A program made the position numbers and the translations under genes. Shown here piece after piece: positions 24,946 to 60,358 of a DNA stretch of 64,000 nucleotides (position 1 is the first letter of the stretch; the number at the start of each line of letters is the position of its first letter). Below the pieces are notes generated by a model. That model was not told where the DNA came from. It saw only the letters and a program-made list of their open reading frames with translations, and did no database searches. Source of the stretch: Burkholderiales bacterium (GTDB taxonomy: Bacteria; Pseudomonadota; Gammaproteobacteria; Burkholderiales; SG8-39); assembly GCA_041558415.1 (NCBI GenBank), contig JBFFEY010000011.1, forward strand, positions 3,927-67,926, in the 5' to 3' direction.

Positions 24946-26097
24946 TCAGAACGCGAGCGCGAACAGGCCGCCGTTGCGCGTCTGCACAAGGAAGCCGCTC
25001 GGCAGGCGAATCGGCGCGGCCCGCACAGCGCCGCCGTCGGTCGCGATGCGCGCGATGAAGGCCCCCGAGTCGCGCGCGAGGAAGTGAACGTAGCCTTCGA
25101 GATCGCCGACCGCGATCGCCGACGCCGTCGGGTACGGCAGCGAGAGCTGGCGGTGGGCGAGCTTGTCCTGCTTCCAGACACTGCGGCCGGTGAAACGGTC
25201 GAGCGCGTGCACCGCGCCCTGATCGTCGCTCACGTAGGCATTGCGCTCATCGAGGCGAACGCCCGTGACCGAGGACAACTCGCGCGACCAGACGGGGTTG
25301 CCGCTGCGCATGTCGAAGCAGGTCACGCGCCCCTGGTAAGCCGCGGCGCACACCTCTCGGCCGAGCACCGCCGGCTCGCCGACGACGTCGGTGACGCGCT
25401 CGAGCTCGGTTGCGCCGCGCGGCAGCGCCACGCTGCCTTCCCAGCGCCCGGCGCCGTTCGTCGTCGTGATACCGACCAGCTTGCCGCCAGAAAAGCCCGC
25501 CAGCGCGAGGCCGGGCACCAGCGTCACGCCCGCCGGGGAGCGTACCAGCAACGACGAGGCGGCGCGTTGGTAGACCCAGCGCCGCTTGCCGTCCGCGACG
25601 CTGAAGGCGAACACCCGGTTGTCGACGCTGCGCACGATCGCCAGCCCGTCGCCGACTGACGGTGCCGCGAGTACTTCGCTGGAGACCTGCGCCCGCCAAA
25701 GCGGCGCACCGTCCGCCGCGTTCAGCGCCCGCACCTCGCCCTCCTGCGTCGCAACCACCACCGTCGTGCCGTCGCTGCCGACCCCGGCCGAGAGCCGCGT
25801 GTCGAGCGAGACGCGCCAGCGTGTTGCGCCGGTCGTTGCATCGATACGCATGACGGTGCCGTCGTGCGCGGCCGCGTAAACGTCGTCGCCCACCAGCACT
25901 GGGCTGAAGACGAAGCGATCGCCACTGCCGACACTGGTCGACCACAGCACGCGCACCGTCTGGCCGCCCGCGAGCGGCGGCAACGGCGCAGGCTTCGGCC
26001 CTTCGCTGCCGCCGAACCAGTCGACCGGGTTGAGGCTGAAATTCGAGCACGCGCCCAGCAGGAGCACGAGCGGGAGCAGGATGGCGCGCTTCAGCAC
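24946..26097 (-). CDS. bamB: Outer membrane protein assembly lipoprotein BamB
   Basis: Lipobox LLGAC and PQQ-like beta-propeller repeats; located between yfgM and der. Probable GTG start 26097 (SD GGAGG). Confidence 0.92.

Positions 26098-44959: not shown

Positions 44960-44967
<8 letters not shown>
44239..44967 (-). CDS. SDR family oxidoreductase (atypical)
   Basis: GAGDATG, FNVGAN, TGATASLRG, VAHVVIDG. Confidence 0.88.
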
Positions 44968-50053
<5,086 letters not shown>

Positions 50054-50182
50054 GCCCTCCCCCAACAAAACGCGTGATCGCGCAGTGTAACCCCACGCCC
50101 GATCAATCCGGCGTGGCGCGCGCGATCTGCGCTATGCTTCGCTGCCGCACGCGGTGCGGCCAACCACCACAACAGGAACCCC

Positions 50183-50851
50183 ATGAAGAAAATCGCAGCC
50201 GCCCTCGCGGCCGGGCTCGCGCTGGGCAGCGCCAGTGCGGCCGAACTGAGCGAAGAGCAGAAAACCTTCTACGCGCTGGGCCAGGTGCTGGCGCGCAACG
50301 TTTCGACGTTCAGCCTGACGCGCGCCGAGCTCGACGCCGTGCAGCAGGGCTTTCGCGACGGCGTGCTCGGCGCGAAGAGCGCGGTCGACATGAACGTCTA
50401 CGGACCGAAGATCCAGCCGCTGGCGACCGCGCGCCAGGCCGCGGTCGCCGAAAAATCGGCCGCAGCCGGCAAGGCGCAGCTCGCCAAGGCGGCGCAAGAA
50501 AAAGGCGCGCTGAAGGCACAAAGCGGACTCGTCTACCTCGCGCTGCGCGAGGGCAAGGGCGCCAAGCCGGCGGCGACCGACACCGTCCGCGTGCACTACC
50601 GCGGCACGCTGATCGACGGCACCGAGTTCGACAGCTCCTACAAGCGCAAGGAACCGACCGAGTTCCCGCTAAACGGCGTCATCCCCTGCTGGACCGAGGG
50701 CGTGCAGATGATGAAGGTCGGCGGCAAGGCGCGCCTGACCTGCCCGCCGGAAACGGCCTACGGCGAGCGCGGCGCCGGCGGCGTGATCCCGCCCAACGCG
50801 ACGCTCACCTTCGAGGTCGAACTGCTGGAGATCAAGCAGGCCGCCAAGTAG
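50183..50851 (+). CDS. FKBP-type peptidyl-prolyl isomerase (FkpA/Mip-like, exported)
   Basis: Signal peptide, VHYRGTLIDGTEFDSS, VIPCWTEG, AYGERG, IPPNATL.FEVELL. Confidence 0.95.
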   Translation: MKKIAAALAAGLALGSASAAELSEEQKTFYALGQVLARNVSTFSLTRAELDAVQQGFRDGVLGAKSAVDMNVYGPKIQPLATARQAAVAEKSAAAGKAQLAKAAQEKGALKAQSGLVYLALREGKGAKPAATDTVRVHYRGTLIDGTEFDSSYKRKEPTEFPLNGVIPCWTEGVQMMKVGGKARLTCPPETAYGERGAGGVIPPNATLTFEVELLEIKQAAK

Positions 50852-51609: not shown

Positions 51610-51999
51610 TCAGACCTTCGGCCGATCGAGCAGGATCTTGTAGGCGCGCAGCACCGTGCCGCCCGGCCAGGAGAGCTCGACCAGCAGATCGACGGCCGGC
51701 TCGTTGACCGAATGCCTGCCCTTGATGAGGATCACCGGCTTGCCCTCGACCGTGACGACCGAAACCTGCGCGCCCGCGACCGCGGGCTGCAGGGTCATTC
51801 CGGCCTTCTCGTAATCCTCGAGCGACGCGATACGCGCATTGAACAGCTCCTCGCCGCGCTTGAGCGCCACCAACGGGATCTCGCCCTGCAGCGGCTGGCC
51901 CAGCTTGGAGGTTACGCGCAGCTCGCCCAAGCCAGCCGCCTGCGCGAGCCACGGCCCCAGCAGCAGCAGGCCGGCCAGCATCAGGGCCCGCAGCATCAT
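51610..51999 (-). CDS. Exported protein consisting only of a FimV N-terminal domain
   Basis: Signal peptide then AGLGELRVTSKLGQPL...VNEPAVDLLVELSWPGG.VLR.YKILLDRP, matching the N-terminus of the FimV in this window (AGLGTLRVLSALGEPL...VNEPFLEMLIELEWAGGRLVREYTVLLDPP). Confidence 0.85.
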   Translation of the reverse strand: MMLRALMLAGLLLLGPWLAQAAGLGELRVTSKLGQPLQGEIPLVALKRGEELFNARIASLEDYEKAGMTLQPAVAGAQVSVVTVEGKPVILIKGRHSVNEPAVDLLVELSWPGGTVLRAYKILLDRPKV

Positions 52000-52107
52000 C
52001 GATTTGCGCACGATTCCACCCCGCGTTCTTGTTCGATCCGCGTAACACTACGGCGAGGCGCAGCGAATCTCAAGCGCTTGCCGGCCCGCGGCGTGACGTA
52101 TGACCGC

Positions 52108-52881
52108 TCAGGCCGCAGCCTGCCAGGCGATCCAGGCGCCCCAGGCGACGAGCAGCACGCCGCCCGCCTTGCCCAGACGCCCGCCCGCCGGCACGACCTT
52201 CTCGATGAGCACGAACAGCGCCAGCGCCGCGACCCAGAGCAGGTTCATCACGCCGCCGACGAACAGCAGCGCCATGAGCGCCCAGCAGCAGCCGGTGCAG
52301 AAGGCGCCGTGGCGCAGCCCCATCACCAGCGCGCCGCGCGCGCCGTCGCGCCACTCGGTCATGATGAAGCCGATCGGGCTGCGGCACTTGTCGAGGCAGA
52401 CGTCCTTGAGCGGCGCGAACTGGAACAGGCCCGCGCCGACGAGCAGCGCCGCGCCGAGCCAGGGCGCGGCCTTGCCAATCATCGGCGAGACGAGCGCGGC
52501 ACGCTCGAGCCCGTACTGCGCGCTGGTCGCGAGCAGGCTGAAGGCGGCCCAGACCAGCAGGTAGCCAGCGATGAATACGCCCGTCGACACCATGCTGCCG
52601 CCCTGTGCCTGCCGACGACGCTGGATCGCCGCAAACGTCAGGATCATCGGCGCGGCCGACGGCAGCATCATCGCCACCATCATGACGAACCACATGACGA
52701 CCATGAAGGCGAACATCCCCGCGCTCCACGCCTGCAGCTGCGGCATCGCCATGCCACCGCCCGACATGTCTATGCTGCGCGCGAGGTAAGCCGTATAGCC
52801 CCAGGCAAGCAGCACGATGAGAACGAGAGCTGCGCCGACCGTCAGGCGGTCGCGCTTGAGCAGGGCTTCGACGTGCGTCAT
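52108..52881 (-). CDS. DUF2182-like predicted metal-binding integral membrane protein
   Basis: MMVAMMLPS, LKDVCLDKCRSP, GAFCTGCCWALM.LLFVGGVMNL.W. Start ATG 52881. Confidence 0.85.
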   Translation of the reverse strand: MTHVEALLKRDRLTVGAALVLIVLLAWGYTAYLARSIDMSGGGMAMPQLQAWSAGMFAFMVVMWFVMMVAMMLPSAAPMILTFAAIQRRRQAQGGSMVSTGVFIAGYLLVWAAFSLLATSAQYGLERAALVSPMIGKAAPWLGAALLVGAGLFQFAPLKDVCLDKCRSPIGFIMTEWRDGARGALVMGLRHGAFCTGCCWALMALLFVGGVMNLLWVAALALFVLIEKVVPAGGRLGKAGGVLLVAWGAWIAWQAAA

Positions 52882-52909
52882 GCGCAAGCGCCCAGCAGCT
52901 GCAGGCTGG

Positions 52910-53386
52910 CTATTTTTTCGCCTGCGCCTCGAGGAAGTTGACCATGCGCACCACGTCGGTCGCCTCGACGCGGCCAATGGGCCCGGAGCTGTAGGTCGCA
53001 CTCAGAACCTTGCCGCCCTGCCCAATGAGGAACTCCGAGGGCTGGATGACCTGGCGCTTGTCCTCCCACCAGGAACCCAGCTGCTCGGCCTGCGCGCGCG
53101 TCACGCCGTAGCCCACAGGGAAGCTGAGCGCGGCAGCCACTTCCTTCGCCTTGTCGAGCGGATCGACGCTCGCCGCGAAGACTTTGACGCCCGCCGCAGT
53201 GAGCTGCGCCTTCCAGAATTCGAAGCCGGCCAACTGCCGGCGGCAGTACGGTCACCAGTGCCCGCGGTAGAACAGGATGACCTTGTACTTGGCGTCGATT
53301 CCGTCGGGCAGCTCGAGCGTGCTGCCGTCGACCAGGCTTAGCGTCATCTTCGGAAAGACGTCGCCGGTGTTCAGCTTTTGCGCCAT
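52910..53386 (-). CDS. Selenocysteine-containing peroxiredoxin-like (AhpC/TSA, UxxC) protein, 158 aa, Sec45
   Basis: ATG 53386 with SD GGGAGGG. MAQKLNTGDVFP...VILFYRGHW-(TGA 53254-53252)-PYCRRQL continues in frame into the ORF-track fragment 52910-53233. SECIS-like hairpin follows; adjacent to selC. Confidence 0.9.
53225..53254 (-). promoter_or_regulatory. Putative bacterial SECIS element (peroxiredoxin)
   Basis: UGA-CCGUACUGCC-[GCCGGC-AGUUG-GCCGGC]. Confidence 0.7.
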
Positions 53387-53413
53387 CGCCTCACCCTCCC
53401 GATGCGCATGATA

Positions 53414-53509
53414 TGGCGGAAAAGAGTGGGAGTCGAACCCACCAGGGACGTCTGACGCCCCTCACTGGATTTGAAGTCCAGGCGCCCCACCGGGGTGCGA
53501 TTCTCTTCC
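53414..53509 (-). tRNA. selC: tRNA-Sec (anticodon UCA), 96 nt
   Basis: 8-bp acceptor stem GGAAGAGA/UCUUUUCC, discriminator G plus CCA, anticodon arm CUGGA-CUUCAAA-UCCAG, long variable arm AGGGGCG-UCAGA-CGUCCCU, T arm GUGGG-UUCGACU-CCCAC. Confidence 0.97.
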
Positions 53510-55393
53510 GTGCTGGTCGCGCTGCAGCACGTGCGCATCGCCCTTGCGTCGGGTGAATTTTATCCGGTCGAAGAACTCGAGCACCTCGATCGTGAGGTTG
53601 CGCCCGATGCCCGAGCGGTCGCGGAACGCCGCCGCGGTGATCGCGCCGCTGGCGTGCGCCTCCTCTTCCGCGAGTTGTTCGAGACGGCGCAGTGCCGCAG
53701 GCAGGAAGAAGCGCGTTTTCGAAACGCGCACCAGCAAACCCTGACGCTCGAGACGTGACAGCGCGGCCTCGAGTCTGCGCGGATCGGTCGCGAGCGTTGC
53801 GGCCAGCTCGACGACGCTCGGCGCACGCAAGGCGCTCGATGCGAGCAGCGGTTCGACCTTCTGCCACAGCGCGGCATCGGCGGCGCTGAGCTGAATCCGA
53901 TGCTCCGCCAGACGCAGGCCCGCGCCGTCACGCACGACCCTGCCCTCGCTCACCAGCGACTCGATGAGCGTCGTCAGCGCCGCGCGCGGCAGGCGCAGGC
54001 CGCTGCCCTCGAGCAGGCGGGATTCCGGCGGACCGGCGCTGTCCGGCGCCCGGCGGTGCCAGGCGGTGAGCGCTTCGAGCGCCTTGGCGCGCAGCGCATC
54101 CCAGTGCGCCGGTGAAAAACCCCAGTCGCCGGCGCGCTGTACGGGCAAGCGCTCGGCCAGCGCCACGGCGGCGGCTGGCGTCAGGTTGCGATTCATCGCG
54201 AAGCGCGTCAGGTCGACGCCCTCGGCTGCCTGCGCCAGCAACGCCCCGAGCGCCGCGGCGGGATCGTCGAGCACCTGCGCGGCGAGCGCGGCGAGGCGCT
54301 CGGGCCGCGCCCGGCCGCGCGCCGGCGGAAAGACGTCGATCACGCGACCGCCGGCGAGCGTGCGCCGCGCGGACTGGTCGCGCAGGATGAAGCCGTCGCC
54401 GAACAGCGCGCCGAGTGGGCGGTCGAGCACGAGCTGCACCAGGCCCGCGGCGCCCGGCGCGATGCTGTCGCCCTCGAGCAGCGCGACGCGGCCGATGACG
54501 TTGGCGGCGCCGAGGTGGACGTGCACCGGCGTCCAGTGCGCGAGCGGCTTTGCCTCGTCCGCCAGCACGCGCAACCGCGCGTCGAACTTGCGCACCGCCG
54601 CAGGCACGTCGCCGGCGACGATCCAGTCGCCCCGCTCGATCGCCGTCTTATCGCCGAGCCCGGCGAGATTGAGCGCACAACGCTGCCCCGCAACGCCCCG
54701 CTGCGCCGCCGCGTTCTGCGCATGGATCGCGCGCACGCGCGCCGACTGTCCCGCGAGCAGCGCACGCACCGCGTCGCCGACGCGGATTGCGCCGCTCACG
54801 ACCGTGCCGGTCACGACCAGGCCGGCGCCGGCAATGGTGAAGGTGCGGTCGACCGCGAGGCGGAAGTTGCCCTCGTCTGTCCGCGGCCGCAGCGCCTGCG
54901 CCGCCGCTTGCAGATGCGCCTTCAGCGCGGCGACGCCGTGACCGCCGAGGCTCGAGAGCGGAAACACGGGCGCGGCGCGCAGAGCGGTCGGCGCGAGCAG
55001 CGCGGCGAGCAGCGCCTTGACTTCGGCCACGCGCGCGTCGCTCACGCGATCGATCTTGGTGAGCGCCACCGCGCCCTGTGATACCCCCAGCAGGTCGAGG
55101 ATCGCCAGGTGCTCGCGCGTCTGCGGCATCGGCCCGTCGTCGGCGGCGACGACGAGCAGCGCAAAGTCGATGCCCGCGACGCCGGACAGCATGTTGTGCA
55201 CGAAGCGCTCGTGGCCGGGCACGTCGACGAAGCCGATCGTCTGCGCGTCGTCCACGGGGAGGTAAGCGAAGCCGAGGTCGATCGTCAGGCCGCGCTTTTT
55301 CTCCTCCGGCAGGCGATCGGTGTCGACGCCGGTGAGCGCGCGCACCAGGCTGGTCTTGCCGTGGTCGACGTGGCCCGCCGTGGCGACGATCAC
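53462..55393 (-). CDS. selB: Selenocysteine-specific elongation factor
   Basis: [31 protein letters not shown]; C-terminal winged helix [24 protein letters not shown] start overlaps the selA stop; last 16 codons lie inside selC. Confidence 0.97.
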
Positions 55394-56766
55394 GCGCCCT
55401 CCAGCTGCGCGGCGAAGCGCGCTTCGTCGGCCGGCTCCAGGCCGCGCAGGTCGAGAATCAGGGCACCGTCCTGCAGGCGGCCGATGACCGGAACCGGCAG
55501 CGCGCGAAACGCGGTGGCAAGGCGCGTCGTGCCCGGGCGCAGCGCGAGCCCCGCGCTCGCGAGGTGCTGGCGCGGCGCCGCCCCGCTGCCGACCTCGCTC
55601 TCGCAGTCGATCACGCTCACCTCGACGCCCGGCTTGGCCCAGGCGGCCAGCCGCGGGCGCAGGCGATCGGCCATCGTGCGGAGGTCCGCCACCGATCGCG
55701 CCAGGCGACGCAGCACGGGCAGGCGCGTCGCCACGCGCTCGGGATCCTGGTAGAGCCGCAACACCGCGGCGAGCGCCGCCACGGTGAGCTTGTCGACGCG
55801 CAGCGCGCGCTTCAGCGGGTTGCGCCGCAGCCGGGCGACGAGATCCGCGCGCCCGACGATGATCCCCGCCTGCGGGCCGCCGAGCAGCTTGTCGCCGCTG
55901 AAGCTAACCAGGTCGGCGCCCTGCGCGATGGCCTGCGCCGGGGTCGGCTCGGCCGGCAGGCCGAAGCGCCGCAGGTCGACCAGCGTGCCGCTGCCGAGAT
56001 CGACCACGAAGGGCACGCCCCGCGCGCGGCACAGCGTGGCGAGGTCGCGCTCGGCGACCGCCGCGGTAAAGCCCTCGATGGCGTAGTTGCTGGCGTGCGC
56101 CTTCAGCACCAGCCCGGTCTTCGATCCGATCGCCTGCGCGAAATCGTCGAGATGCGTGCGGTTGGTCGTGCCGACTTCGCGCAGCCTGCAGCCCGCGCGC
56201 TGCATGAGGTCCGGCAGACGGAACGAGCCGCCGATCTCGATCAGCTCGCCGCGCGAGACCGGCACTTCCTTGCGCTTGGCGAGCGTGTTCAGCATCAGCA
56301 GCACCGCGGCCGCGTTGTTGTTCACCACGGTGGCCGCCGGTGCGCCGGTCAGCGCGCACAGCAGCCGTTCGAGGTGATGGTCGCGCTCGCCGCGCCGGCC
56401 CGTGGCGAGGTCGTACTCCAGATTCGTCGCCTCGCGCGCGGCCTCGCACAGTGCGTCGATCGCCTCCTCGGGCAGCGGCGCGCGACCGAGATTGGTGTGC
56501 AGCAGCGTGCCGGTGAGGTTGAACACCGGGCGCAGCGAGGAACGCGCCTGCTGCGCGAGGCGCTCGGCGACGCGGCCGACGACGGCGTGCGCCACGTCCT
56601 GCGGCAGGGCCGCGCGCGCGCTGCGCAGGTCATCGAGCACGCCGCGGATCGCGTCGGTCACCGCCGCGCGGCCGTAGGCGGCGATCAGCGCGTCGGCTTC
56701 CGGCCGCCGCAGCAAACGGTCGACCGAGGGCAGCGCGGCAAGTGCGGAAGCGCGTGAATCCACCAT
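55390..56766 (-). CDS. selA: L-seryl-tRNA(Sec) selenium transferase
   Basis: [58 protein letters not shown]. Start ATG 56766. Confidence 0.97.
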
Positions 56767-56833
56767 GTCTGGAACGCTCGGGAAGATGGCCCTATGATAG
56801 CCAACGTCCCTCCACGAGACCGAAAGGCCAGCC

Positions 56834-57610
56834 ATGCGTGCCGAGACGCCCGTCGATCCCGTCGCCCTGCGCGAGGAGGTCAAGATCAAGTACCGCGAAG
56901 TCGCCTGCAATCCGCAGGGCAAGTACCACTTTCACACCGGCCGGCGCCTGGCGAGGCGCCTGGGCTACGACGACGCGGTCGTCGCGCGCATGCCGGACGA
57001 GGCGGTCGAGTCCTTCGCCGGGGTCGCCAACCCGTTCGCGCTGCGCGCGCTCGCGCCCGGCGAGACCGTCGTCGACGTCGGCTCGGGCGCGGGCTTCGAC
57101 TGCTTCATCGCCGCGCAGCAGGTCGGCGCCGGCGGAAAGGTGGTCGGCGTCGACATGCTCGAGGAAATGCTGCAGAAGGCGCGCGCCAGTGCCGCGCGCA
57201 TGGGTCTGACGAATGTCGAATTCCGCGCGGGCCTGATCGAGGCGATGCCGGTCGAGGACGGCTGGGCCGACGTCGTCATCAGCAACGGCGTCATGAACCT
57301 GTGCGCCGACAAGAAAAAGGCGTTCGCGGAGATCTGGCGCGTGCTCAAGCCCGGCGGGCGGCTGCAGTTCGCCGATATCGCCAACGGCAAGCCCGTGCCG
57401 GAAGCGGCCATCCGCAACATCGATCTCTGGACCGCTTGAATCGCCGGCGGCCTTCCGTGTGAAGGCTGGCGGGCGATGCTGGAGCAGATCGGCTTCGTCG
57501 AGGTGCAGATCGGCGCGCCCTGCGACACCTTCGGCGAGGCCGCCGGCGAGAAGAACGCGCGCAGCTTCGAGGTCTACGGCTACCCGTTCCTCGCGCGCAA
57601 GCCGACGTAA
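56834..57610 (+). CDS. Selenocysteine-containing ArsM-like SAM-dependent methyltransferase, 258 aa, Sec202
   Basis: Motif [29 protein letters not shown]-(TGA 57437-57439)[24 protein letters not shown]...[12 protein letters not shown] continues as a plausible ArsM-type C-terminus. SECIS-like hairpin follows; divergent from selA. Confidence 0.85.
57437..57471 (+). promoter_or_regulatory. Putative bacterial SECIS element (methyltransferase)
   Basis: UGA-AUCGCCGGCG-[GCCUUC-CGUGU-GAAGGC]-UGGCG, with possible lower stem CGCCG/UGGCG. Confidence 0.75.
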
Positions 57611-57687: not shown

Positions 57688-58812
57688 GTGTCCAGCCCGG
57701 AATCCAACGCGCCTTCGCATCGTGCCGCGCGGCGCCGCCGCGCGCCGCTCAACCTGGTCGTGCTGGGCCTGGCGATCGTCCTCGCGCTCGGCTTCGGCTA
57801 CCGCGAGTTTCGTCAGCGCCTGCTCTTTCTGCACGAGGAGGATGCGCGCATCCGCGCCGACATGGTGACCGTCGCCAGCCGCGTCGCCGGCTGGGTGACG
57901 CGCGTCGCGGCACAGGAGGGTCAGGCAGTGGCGGCCGGCACGGTGCTGGTCGAGGTCGACCGACGCGATGCCGCGCTCGCGCTGGAGGAGCTCGACGCGC
58001 AGCGCGCCGCGCTGGCGGCCGAGCGTTCGCGCCTGGCCGCCGAGCAGGCGCTGGTGCGCGGCCAGACCGAGAGCCATCTGCAGTCGGCGCGCGCCGAACG
58101 CGAGGCGGCGCGCGTGACCGTCTCCAGCCTCGAGCCGCAGCGCAGCCTGGCGCGCAGCGAGCTGAAGCGCAGCCAGCAGCTGTTCGACAAGAAGATGGCC
58201 TCGCAGAGTGCGCGCGACCAGGCCGAGACGCAGCTGCAGCGCGTCGAGCGCGAGTACCGCATCGCGGCCGCCAACCTGGAGGGCGCGGAGGCGCGCGTGC
58301 GCGAGGCCGAGGCCGAGCGCGCGCGCCTCGATGTGCTGGCCGGCCAGCTTGCGGTGCTCGAGACGCGCGAGGCCGAGATCGCGGCGCGCCTGCAGCGCCA
58401 GCGACTCGACCTCGGCGACCGAATTGTCAAGAGCCCGCTCGACGGCGTGGTCGACCGCAAGTTCGTCGAGGCCGGCGAGTACGTCTCGCCGGGGCAGCGG
58501 CTGATGCTGCTGCACGACCCGTCGAAGGTCTGGGTCGAGGCCAACATCAAGGAGACGGCGTTGCGCCGGCTCGCGGTCGGCCAGACCGTGCGCGTGCGCG
58601 TCGACGCCTATCCGGACGAGACCTTCGAGGGCCGCATCGAGCGCATTGGCCACGCCGCCACCAGCACCTTCGCGCTGCTGCCGAGCCCGAACCCGAGCGG
58701 CAACTTCACCAAGATCACGCAGCGCGTGCCGGTGCGCATCGCGGTCGCGCAGCGCGAGGGCCGGCTGCGCCCGGGCATGATGGTCGAGATCAAGATTGCC
58801 ACCGGCGGTTGA
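57688..58812 (+). CDS. HlyD/EmrA family membrane fusion protein
   Basis: N-terminal TM, VASRVAGWV, coiled coil, VKSPLDGVV, VWVEANIKET, NPSGNFTKITQRVPVRI, LRPGM. Confidence 0.93.
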   Translation: MSSPESNAPSHRAARRRRAPLNLVVLGLAIVLALGFGYREFRQRLLFLHEEDARIRADMVTVASRVAGWVTRVAAQEGQAVAAGTVLVEVDRRDAALALEELDAQRAALAAERSRLAAEQALVRGQTESHLQSARAEREAARVTVSSLEPQRSLARSELKRSQQLFDKKMASQSARDQAETQLQRVEREYRIAAANLEGAEARVREAEAERARLDVLAGQLAVLETREAEIAARLQRQRLDLGDRIVKSPLDGVVDRKFVEAGEYVSPGQRLMLLHDPSKVWVEANIKETALRRLAVGQTVRVRVDAYPDETFEGRIERIGHAATSTFALLPSPNPSGNFTKITQRVPVRIAVAQREGRLRPGMMVEIKIATGG

Positions 58813-60358
58813 CGCGAGCCTCGGTATCGAGGCCCTGTTCCAGCGCTACGGGCCTGCGTACCGCTGGCTGGTGACCGTCGGCGGGCTGCTCGGCGCGATG
58901 TCGATGGTGCTTTCGTCGACGATGATCAACGTCGCGGTGCCGAGCATCATGGGCGCCTTCGGCATCGGCCAGGATCTCGCGCAGTGGGCGGCGACCGCGT
59001 TCCTCGCGACCATGGTGGCAAGCCAGCTGCTAAACGCCTGGGCGGTGGAGGCCTTCGGCCAGCGCATCACGTTCTGCCTCGCCTTGCTGATCTTCGTGCT
59101 CGGCGCGCTGATCGGCGCCAACGCGACCAGCATCGAGACGCTGATCGCGGGGCGCGTGCTGCAGGGCTTTTCCGCGGGCCTGGTGCAGCCGCTGGTGATG
59201 GCGACGGTGGTGGCGGTATTTCCCGCCGAGCGGCGCGGCATGGCCGTGAGCCTTTACTCGGTGGGCGTCACCATGGCGCCGAGCTTCGGTCCCTGGATCG
59301 GCGGCCTGGCGATCGATGCCATGAACTGGCGCCAGATCTTCATGGTGCCGCTGCCGCTGGTGGGGCTGGCTTTCCTGCTCGGGCTGGTGCTCATGCCGTC
59401 GAAGAAGCTCTCGCGCCGGCTGCCGAAGTTCGACTGGAGCGGCTACGCGCTGCTCACGCTCGCGCTGATGTGCGTGATGAGCGTGATCGGCAACGGCCAG
59501 CGCTGGGGGTGGAGCTCCGACCGCAGCGCCACCTTTCTCGTCGTCGGCCTGGCCGCAGCGGCGCTGTTCACCCTGCTCCAACTGCGTTCGAAAAACCCCC
59601 TGCTCGACGTCAGCCTGTTCGCCGACCTGCGCTTCACCGCGGCGATGGGCATCGCTTTTGCCTTCGGCGCGGGCAACTTCGCCACCAACTACGCCATCCC
59701 GGTGTTCATGCAGACCGTACAGGGCTTCACGCCGACCGAGGCCGGCTTCGTACTGGTGCCCGCCGGCATCCTGCTGGTGACGATGATCCCGGGCGTCGGT
59801 CGGCTCGCCGACACGCTGCCTTCGCACCTGCCGATCATGCTCGGTTGCGTGCTGTTCTCGCTCGCCGGCTGGCTGCTGTCCGATACCGACGTCAACACCG
59901 CGTTCTGGACCATGGCCGGCTTCGCCATCGTCAGCCGCATCGCGCTCGGCCTGGTGATGCCGAACCTCGGCAAGGTGGCGATGAGCACGGTGCCGGCCGG
60001 CAAGCTGAACCAGGGCGCCGGCACCTACAACTTCATCCGCCAGATGGGCGGCGCCTTCGGCGTCGCCCTGACGGCGGTCGCGATCGAGCTGCGCACCGCG
60101 CGCCACGCCGACCTGCTGACCGCGACACAAACGCCGGCCAACGTGCAGACCCGCGAACTGCTCGATCGCGTCGCCGAGCTGCTCGCCCGCGGCGGGCTGC
60201 CGGAATCGCTGCTGCAGCCCGGCGCGCTCGACTACCTCGGCCGCGTACTCTACGCGCAAGCGCTCGGCCTCGGCTTCCAGGACGCGTACTTCTTCATCTG
60301 CTTCGCCTTCGCGCTCGCCCTCGTGCCGGCCTGGTTCCTCGGGCGGGCGGGGCGCTAG
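58796..60358 (+). CDS. DHA2/EmrB family MFS efflux transporter
   Basis: STMINVAVPSI, GRVLQG, RG.A, PSFGP.IGG, W..IF; about 14 TMs; overlaps the end of the fusion-protein gene. Confidence 0.93.
   Translation: MPPAVDASLGIEALFQRYGPAYRWLVTVGGLLGAMSMVLSSTMINVAVPSIMGAFGIGQDLAQWAATAFLATMVASQLLNAWAVEAFGQRITFCLALLIFVLGALIGANATSIETLIAGRVLQGFSAGLVQPLVMATVVAVFPAERRGMAVSLYSVGVTMAPSFGPWIGGLAIDAMNWRQIFMVPLPLVGLAFLLGLVLMPSKKLSRRLPKFDWSGYALLTLALMCVMSVIGNGQRWGWSSDRSATFLVVGLAAAALFTLLQLRSKNPLLDVSLFADLRFTAAMGIAFAFGAGNFATNYAIPVFMQTVQGFTPTEAGFVLVPAGILLVTMIPGVGRLADTLPSHLPIMLGCVLFSLAGWLLSDTDVNTAFWTMAGFAIVSRIALGLVMPNLGKVAMSTVPAGKLNQGAGTYNFIRQMGGAFGVALTAVAIELRTARHADLLTATQTPANVQTRELLDRVAELLARGGLPESLLQPGALDYLGRVLYAQALGLGFQDAYFFICFAFALALVPAWFLGRAGR

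Follow-up and report, generated by a model that had tools for sequence, protein, structure and literature searches.

A family of selenocysteine (Sec)-containing proteins related to the peroxiredoxins (Prx) was catalogued in the Sargasso Sea data as the "Prx-like protein," which carried a UxxC motif instead of TxxU and was represented by 22 Sec and 4 Cys sequences (Zhang and Gladyshev 2005). The family was later listed in the GOS data as "Prx-like 1" (pfam00578, UxxC), with 225 Sec sequences (Zhang and Gladyshev 2008), and a 2026 review calls it a "Prx-like thiol:disulfide oxidoreductase" (PF00578, UxxC/UxxU), "predicted with high confidence" and experimentally unverified. Two arrangements of the Sec-decoding genes have also been reported. 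In Alpha-, Beta-, and Gammaproteobacteria, fdhA is found next to selA-selB-selC, an association that was read as the co-transfer of the machinery and its client (Zhang et al. 2006; Peng et al. 2016). In Alphaproteobacteria, Gammaproteobacteria, and Nitrospirae, selC overlaps or is embedded in selB, and a part in SelB/tRNA-Sec homeostasis was proposed for this overlap in the 2026 review.

Here we describe a member of the Prx-like 1 family, referred to as prx, in a window of 64,000 nt (the whole stretch of DNA that was analyzed). Most published members are known from marine reads that lack genomic context, whereas this gene comes from an uncultured soil/sediment Burkholderiales and lies 27 nt past selC. 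At the protein level no difference from Prx-like 1 was found, as the same Pfam domain and the motifs FYRGHW-U-PYCRRQL and IQPSEF are present, and the alignment with the GOS "Prx-like 1" sequence JCVI_READ_1093012132367 extends over 145 residues without gaps (63% identity, E 3e-75). The first-pass annotation had stated that Sec forms of Prx-like proteins are known, in agreement with GOS Dataset S1, where "FYRGHW" occurs 23 times and "HWUPYC" 41 times under "#Prx-like 1." Also as in the published data, Sec forms outnumber Cys forms among the relatives of prx. The gene belongs to a family catalogued since 2005, and its recognition is a correction of the annotation and not the discovery of a new kind of protein; the findings at this locus leave both the knowledge of Sec decoding and the identity of the Prx-like 1 family unaltered. 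The new points are modest: the recurrent placement of prx beside selC, a multi-client "Sec island," and the scale of the mis-annotation. Taken as a whole, the explanation developed below is in our judgment highly probable, namely that prx encodes a cytoplasmic 158-residue Prx-like 1 selenoprotein with a SECIS-decoded Sec45 and a chemistry based on Sec45 and Cys48, probably co-transcribed with selA-selB-selC.

With TGA translated as Sec (U), the prx coding sequence (52910..53386, minus strand) comprises 158 codons plus a TAG stop (52912-52910) and encodes an AhpC/TSA domain. The individual observations of the first-pass annotation were all reproduced. It had noted a strong Shine-Dalgarno sequence and an ATG 27 nt past the CCA end of tRNA-Sec; by sequence inspection, the start is the ATG at 53386-53384, the Shine-Dalgarno sequence GGAGG (53399-53395) is found 8 nt upstream, and the CCA end is at 53414. 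The 27-nt spacer between the tRNA and the ATG (53387..53413, minus strand) also holds a -10-like TATCAT (53413-53408). The string FYRGHW-TGA-PYC, which had been taken to place Sec45 at the first position of a CxxC, is translated as VILFYRGHW-U-PYCRRQL, with UGA codon 45 at 53252..53254 and the TGC codon of Cys48, the second UxxC position and invariant in the protein alignment, at 53243..53245 (both on the minus strand). As had equally been pointed out, the only entry of the standard ORF list at this place is a 107-aa tail (52910..53233, minus strand) starting from a TTG. This TTG is the Leu52 codon (53231..53233, minus strand) and falls inside the loop of the SECIS-type hairpin described below.

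The family scan covered one genome per GTDB species and returned at least 527 matching stretches, of which the best 80 loci were analyzed in detail. Codon 45 is TGA in all 80 of these related loci, the ATG is at the same start position in 77 of them, and none of the 81 sequences carries an in-frame stop in the 42 codons 5' of the TGA; because of these three observations, the in-frame TGA is far beyond what chance would produce. Likewise, the eight prx orthologues detected among 61 related genomes all contain exactly one in-frame TGA each. The entropies of the three codon positions are 0.71/0.60/1.31 in the 42 codons 5' of the TGA and 0.54/0.44/1.24 on its 3' side, and the median identity to the window's prx is 69% and 70%, respectively. 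Judged by these comparisons among sequences, the 42 codons preceding the TGA evolve as coding sequence.

If the TGA were instead a true stop, the gene would be decayed, or would encode just the 107-residue tail or a peptide of 44 residues. Standard gene calling does yield the 107-aa ORF alone, and most database entries have that form: among the 120 database proteins listed, more than 90 are 106–110 aa long and cover 66–68% of the query. In the structural model, however, a Trx/Prx fold is impossible without strands 14–39 and the active-site motif, and purifying selection acts on the N-terminal 42 codons just as it does on the remainder of the gene. The TGA was never lost or swapped for TAA or TAG in the 80 loci, and both the adjacent Sec machinery and a covarying hairpin speak against termination, which leaves a true stop extremely improbable. 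Some full-length database forms have Trp at position 45; in the one case looked up (P0013), this Trp results from decoding a TGA with a different genetic code. A search for Cys-containing homologues had been suggested as a check and gave a positive answer, as P0003 (61% identity) and P0016 (56%) both translate under table 11, and Cys codons (TGC/TGT) occupy the TGA position in the homologues L095 and L096. True Cys forms do exist, though they are rare.

The SECIS-type hairpin is located at 53225..53241 (minus strand), within codons 49–54 (R-R-Q-L-A-G). It begins 10–11 nt past the UGA and consists of a 6-bp stem (53241-53236 paired with 53230-53225) and the loop AGUUG (53235-53231), with a dG of -12.9 kcal/mol. 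As is characteristic of bacterial SECIS elements, it is a stem-loop that follows closely on the UGA and carries G/U in its apical loop. When the 71 nt downstream from the UGA were folded as a single sequence, the result was no better than for shuffles (z -1.02), and the MFE structure did not contain the conserved hairpin; since this fold was uninformative, comparative counting across the relatives was used instead. On 46 distinct sequences, 85.7% of the cells pair, and compensatory changes were found in two stem pairs (CG to GC in five sequences; GC to AU in 10, to UA in three, and to GU in eight). The covariation score of the hairpin was reached by none of 500 shuffles, and slid registers were all much worse in the same 46 sequences, five of which show U-U instead of a base pair at one stem position. 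Part of the hairpin is dictated by the conserved CRRQL(A/V)G peptide. The stem changes, for their part, tie the Arg codon that is used to the amino acid present at position 53 or 54, and constraint on the protein can hardly account for this link by itself.

Counting against the SECIS assignment, a similar hairpin is still retained in the Cys forms L095 and L096. Hairpins of comparable shape are found in two other TGA genes of the genome (see below), with spacers of 8–10 nt, 5-nt loops (CGUGU and AGUUU), and GU at loop positions 2–3, a geometry whose sharing across the three genes is expected for one SelB. By analogy with established bacterial Sec decoding, SelB and Sec-tRNA-Sec would bind the prx hairpin downstream from UGA45, and Sec would be inserted instead of translation being terminated. 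The initial proposal of a hidden UxxC Prx-like selenoprotein directly 3' of tRNA-Sec is borne out by the reading frame, the Pfam assignment, the TGA in 80 of 80 loci, and the compensatory changes in the hairpin. The apparent stop codon almost certainly encodes Sec, and prx an intact 158-residue redox protein.

Pfam assigned residues 8–127 of this protein to AhpC-TSA (1.3e-19; 70.8 bits against a cut-off of 26 bits), with Redoxin as a further match (2.5e-12). The AlphaFold2 model (pLDDT 91.4) has a Prx fold, and the best 50 matches listed by Foldseek against the PDB are all peroxiredoxins (TM 0.78–0.84), including Bcp4 (3hjp, TM 0.83), Prx6, and AhpE. Helix 46–57 of the model begins directly after U45, which occupies its N-cap. 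The canonical peroxiredoxins (BCP/PrxQ, Prx6, AhpE, AhpC) have in common with prx the fold and the position of the peroxidatic Cys, which is taken by Cys48 in the profile alignment to Prx 6q5v and ResA. The same alignment places Sec45 opposite the Thr of the Prx TxxC and opposite the attacking Cys of the ResA WCPHC, and the invariant Pro116 opposite the catalytic Arg of 6q5v and opposite a Pro of ResA, which we take to be the cis-Pro of thioredoxin-fold oxidoreductases. Whereas known Sec-containing Prx are of the TxxU type, prx is of the UxxC type, with Sec at the Thr position. The Prx motif PxxxTxxC was not found in prx, which reads R41-G-H-W-U45-P-Y-C48, with Arg for Pro and Sec for Thr, and where canonical peroxiredoxins have the conserved catalytic Arg, ahead of the strand F-(I/V)-(I/V)-D, the profile alignment shows Pro116.

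The comparison with ResA, TlpA, and StoA is complementary, since their W-C-P-x-C aligns with the W-U-P-Y-C of prx, and the ResA cis-Pro with Pro116. These proteins are, however, membrane-anchored and extracytoplasmic, whereas the window's prx has no signal peptide or anchor and a fold nearer to Prx. No family-specific model was found for prx in NCBIfam, where the best match scored 30 bits against a cut-off of 140, the ResA model 21 bits against 170, and the model of the SelL-related redox protein (NF040769) 20.9 bits against 120. Because the fold matches Prx, and Sec45 and Pro116 align with ResA, prx is, as modeled, a Prx scaffold with a thioredoxin-type UxxC active site.

With such an active site, Sec45 would attack an oxidized substrate, which could be a disulfide, a sulfenic acid, or a hydroperoxide, and a selenenylsulfide would form between Sec45 and Cys48, to be re-reduced by a thioredoxin- or AhpD-type partner. 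Peroxidase activity is uncertain, because the Thr and the Arg of the Prx triad are missing. A genuine peroxidase, in which Sec45 and Cys48 reduce hydroperoxides and are recycled by an AhpD-like protein or thioredoxin in the manner of AhpC/AhpD, would be in keeping with the structural matches at TM ~0.8, all of them peroxiredoxins, with the alignment of Cys48 to the peroxidatic Cys, and with the AhpD/CMD-like genes that lie just upstream in 15 relatives, one with CSY-TGA (a thioredoxin gene is present in nine of the 15). The replacement of the motif residues by Arg41 and Sec45 and of the catalytic Arg by the invariant Pro116 speaks against that activity, and the prx of the window has no AhpD-like or thioredoxin neighbor. 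We consider it rather unlikely that prx acts as a peroxidase and not as a general thiol:disulfide oxidoreductase.

The Sec-decoding trait of the genome is complete, with selA, selB, and selC in the window and selD elsewhere. On the minus strand, selA (selenocysteine synthase, 55390..56922; Pfam SelA 9.4e-153) is followed by selB (Sec-specific elongation factor, 53462..55393; Pfam GTP_EFTU, Beta-barrel_SelB, SelB-wing_2, and SelB-wing_3), selC (tRNA-Sec with anticodon UCA, 53414..53509; detected by ARAGORN and by Rfam RF01852 with 75.4 bits against a gathering score of 47), prx, and the gene of a DUF2182/PpoB2-family membrane protein (52108..52881; PF09948 9.1e-70 on a longer ORF, with ATG 52881 as the likely start). 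The successive junctions are a 4-nt overlap, a 48-nt overlap, a 27-nt gap, and a 28-nt gap. The frame of selB has no stop before tRNA-Sec, and its last 48 nt (53462-53509, minus strand) are inside the tRNA gene. The reported overlap of selB and selC is seen here too, but in Burkholderiales and with a selenoprotein gene after the tRNA. An overlap of ~45 nt was also observed in at least seven relatives (L021, L024, L025, L026, L027, L038, and L043). As in the published fdhA-sel linkage, a selenoprotein gene is joined to the Sec-decoding genes; where the published cases have fdhA, the clients in the window are Prx-like 1 and an ArsM-like methyltransferase. A literature search of limited coverage returned no report of Prx-like 1 adjoining selC.

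No terminator-like site was predicted on the minus strand from selB to the DUF2182 gene. Contigs from metatranscriptome runs span 52918-53439 (prx and the 3' part of the tRNA), 53370-53541 (the start of prx, the tRNA, and the end of selB), and 52346-52944 (the DUF2182/prx junction); being assembled contigs of depth 3–6 that carry no strand information and may derive from carried-over DNA, they are no more than suggestive. Given the tiny gaps, the lack of a predicted terminator, and the RNA-run contigs crossing the junctions, co-transcription of prx with selA-selB-selC, which the first-pass annotation had proposed, is plausible. The gene would probably be transcribed together with selA-selB-selC and then freed by the processing of the tRNA. 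A promoter scan gave one site, TCGACT-17-TATCAT (53436..53408), which overlaps the 3' half of the tRNA, and a weak promoter at this end of the tRNA may supplement the transcription of prx.

The neighborhood of prx is recurrent among the relatives. tRNA-Sec was found within 6 kb of prx in 39 of the 80 loci, and selC within 300 nt in 29, a linkage by which thiol/selenol redox proteins join fdhA in the known "machinery plus client" pattern. In 21 loci selC is in tandem upstream of prx (within 240 nt in 15 of these), and tandem spacers between tRNA-Sec and prx measure 18–45 nt in the relatives. In 14 other loci selC is convergent and downstream, 59–286 nt away, with selB and selA behind it, so that co-transcription is impossible there and the neighborhood is still kept. 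In the Prx tree, the well-supported clade of the window mixes tandem and convergent forms, and therefore the linkage of prx and selC has survived inversions. Such persistence points to co-transfer or to selection acting on proximity, and not strictly to co-transcription.

These same observations, linkage without co-transcription in the 14 convergent relatives and both arrangements within the window's own clade, would also be accommodated if prx were transcribed alone and its proximity to selC reflected the co-inheritance or co-transfer of a "Sec island" instead of membership in a selA-selB-selC operon. The promoter-like site and the -10-like hexamers present in several tandem spacers point in that direction. 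The single site compares with 0.3 expected, however, and its -35 is merely the conserved T-arm of the tRNA, while the tandem spacers of 18–24 nt in L026, L053, L029, and L036 hold a Shine-Dalgarno sequence only. The lack of a predicted terminator between selB and prx and the RNA-run contigs crossing the tRNA-prx junction also speak against transcription of prx on its own, to which we give somewhat less than an even chance; co-transcription in the window is retained as the preferred reading.

Other genes with an in-frame TGA accompany prx in the relatives. A DsbA/FrnE-like UxxC gene (FSDYV-TGA-PWCYLS) is directly 3' of prx in 22 loci, namely in L019, L026, L027, L032, and L038, where it lies ~50 nt past the prx stop, and in 17 others. 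In the convergent-type loci, prx is preceded by AhpD/CMD-like genes with CSY-TGA, by a CMD-like paralogue that has no Cys, and by a thioredoxin (WCAPC); L031, L074, and L090 contain long AhpD-like genes with C(T/F/V)Y-TGA. The DUF2182 gene was considered as a conserved partner and rejected: it is downstream of prx in the window, G002, and G004 only, is on the opposite strand in L036, and is absent from the same-genus G001 and G003 and from 79 of the 80 wider loci. In two cases (L043 and L054), a Burkholderiales-type prx is on contigs of MAGs labeled "uncultured Enterobacteriaceae" and "uncultured Gemmatimonadaceae," which are probably cases of mis-binning or mislabeling rather than of transfer.

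A codon-bias scan had left prx as the only selenoprotein gene of the genome, a result that two further genes overturn. The first encodes an ArsM-like SAM methyltransferase (56834..57610, plus strand) and is divergent from selA. Its TGA (57437-57439) corresponds to U202 in LWTA-U-IAGG and is followed by the hairpin with the loop CGUGU. The protein matches Pfam Methyltransf_31 (1.2e-32) and scores 231 bits with the NCBIfam arsenite methyltransferase model, below the cut-off of 263 bits. By tblastn, its residues 1–257 are matched across the TGA in L021, L023, L024, and L026, and in these loci, too, the gene is linked to the sel genes. Beyond it are genes of an HlyD-type (57688-58812) and an MFS (58796-60358) efflux protein. 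The second, recovered in a hairpin-filtered rescan, is a UGSC-family gene located outside the window, on contig C39, with a TGA at 26028-26030 (minus strand) in AGVGD-U-GSCSSC. When this TGA is read through, the product scores 127.6 bits with NF041046 against a cut-off of 125, and its hairpin combines a spacer of 10 nt, a stem of 8 bp, and the loop AGUUU.

The SelD of the genome is of the Cys type (GGGCGCK), and no in-frame stop was found in its nine molybdopterin oxidoreductase genes, one of which is cut by a contig end. Among 14 other carrier genomes, TGA occurred in just two molybdopterin matches, and in 12 of the 14 no Sec-type molybdopterin enzyme was found. A partial molybdopterin match in G003 (L097, contig C4, 9500-14500; model positions 97–352) was examined as a hidden Sec enzyme and discarded. 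Its upstream part is in another frame, and for this reason it looks like an assembly frameshift and not a TGA; the counterpart of this gene in the genome studied here is the one cut by the contig end, where a Sec-type enzyme is still conceivable. A generalization made in 2006 held that either Sec-FdhA or Sec-SelD is present in every selenoproteome. Carrier genomes with neither of the two appear to exist, as far as a non-exhaustive scan of the sequences goes, and would be example selenoproteomes that run against this generalization.

A broader reading would be that the Burkholderiales and Alphaproteobacteria considered here keep Sec without Sec-FDH or Sec-SelD, on a rearranging "Sec island" made up of selA-selB-selC flanked by Prx-like 1 and by DsbA-, AhpD-, or ArsM-like clients, and that the tandem transcript is cut at the tRNA. 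We put this forward as a speculative and, on balance, unlikely reading. If it were true, the cutting of the selA-selB-tRNA-Sec-prx transcript would mechanically couple the production of the factor, the tRNA, and the client, and selB would lose its stop codon whenever the tRNA was released.

The annotation error is systematic, as the family, present in at least 527 stretches of GTDB species representatives, has been deposited mostly as the tail of 107–109 residues or in the full-length, false-Trp form. The absence of an NCBIfam model scoring above its cut-off may be the reason why automatic annotation leaves prx truncated.

Of the sampled 31-mers of the region 52100-55400, 94–98% are present in each of at least 20 metagenome runs, which come from at least 13 studies and cover soil, sediment, freshwater, and marine samples. 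Either the organism is cosmopolitan or it is a contaminant that recurs. On the other side of the DUF2182 gene from prx are a FimV N-terminal-domain ORF (51610-52011, minus strand), a gene of an FKBP-type isomerase (50183-50851, plus strand), and the gene of a 1702-residue sensor histidine kinase (44960-50068, minus strand) that contains PAS domains and six matches to the GAF domain.
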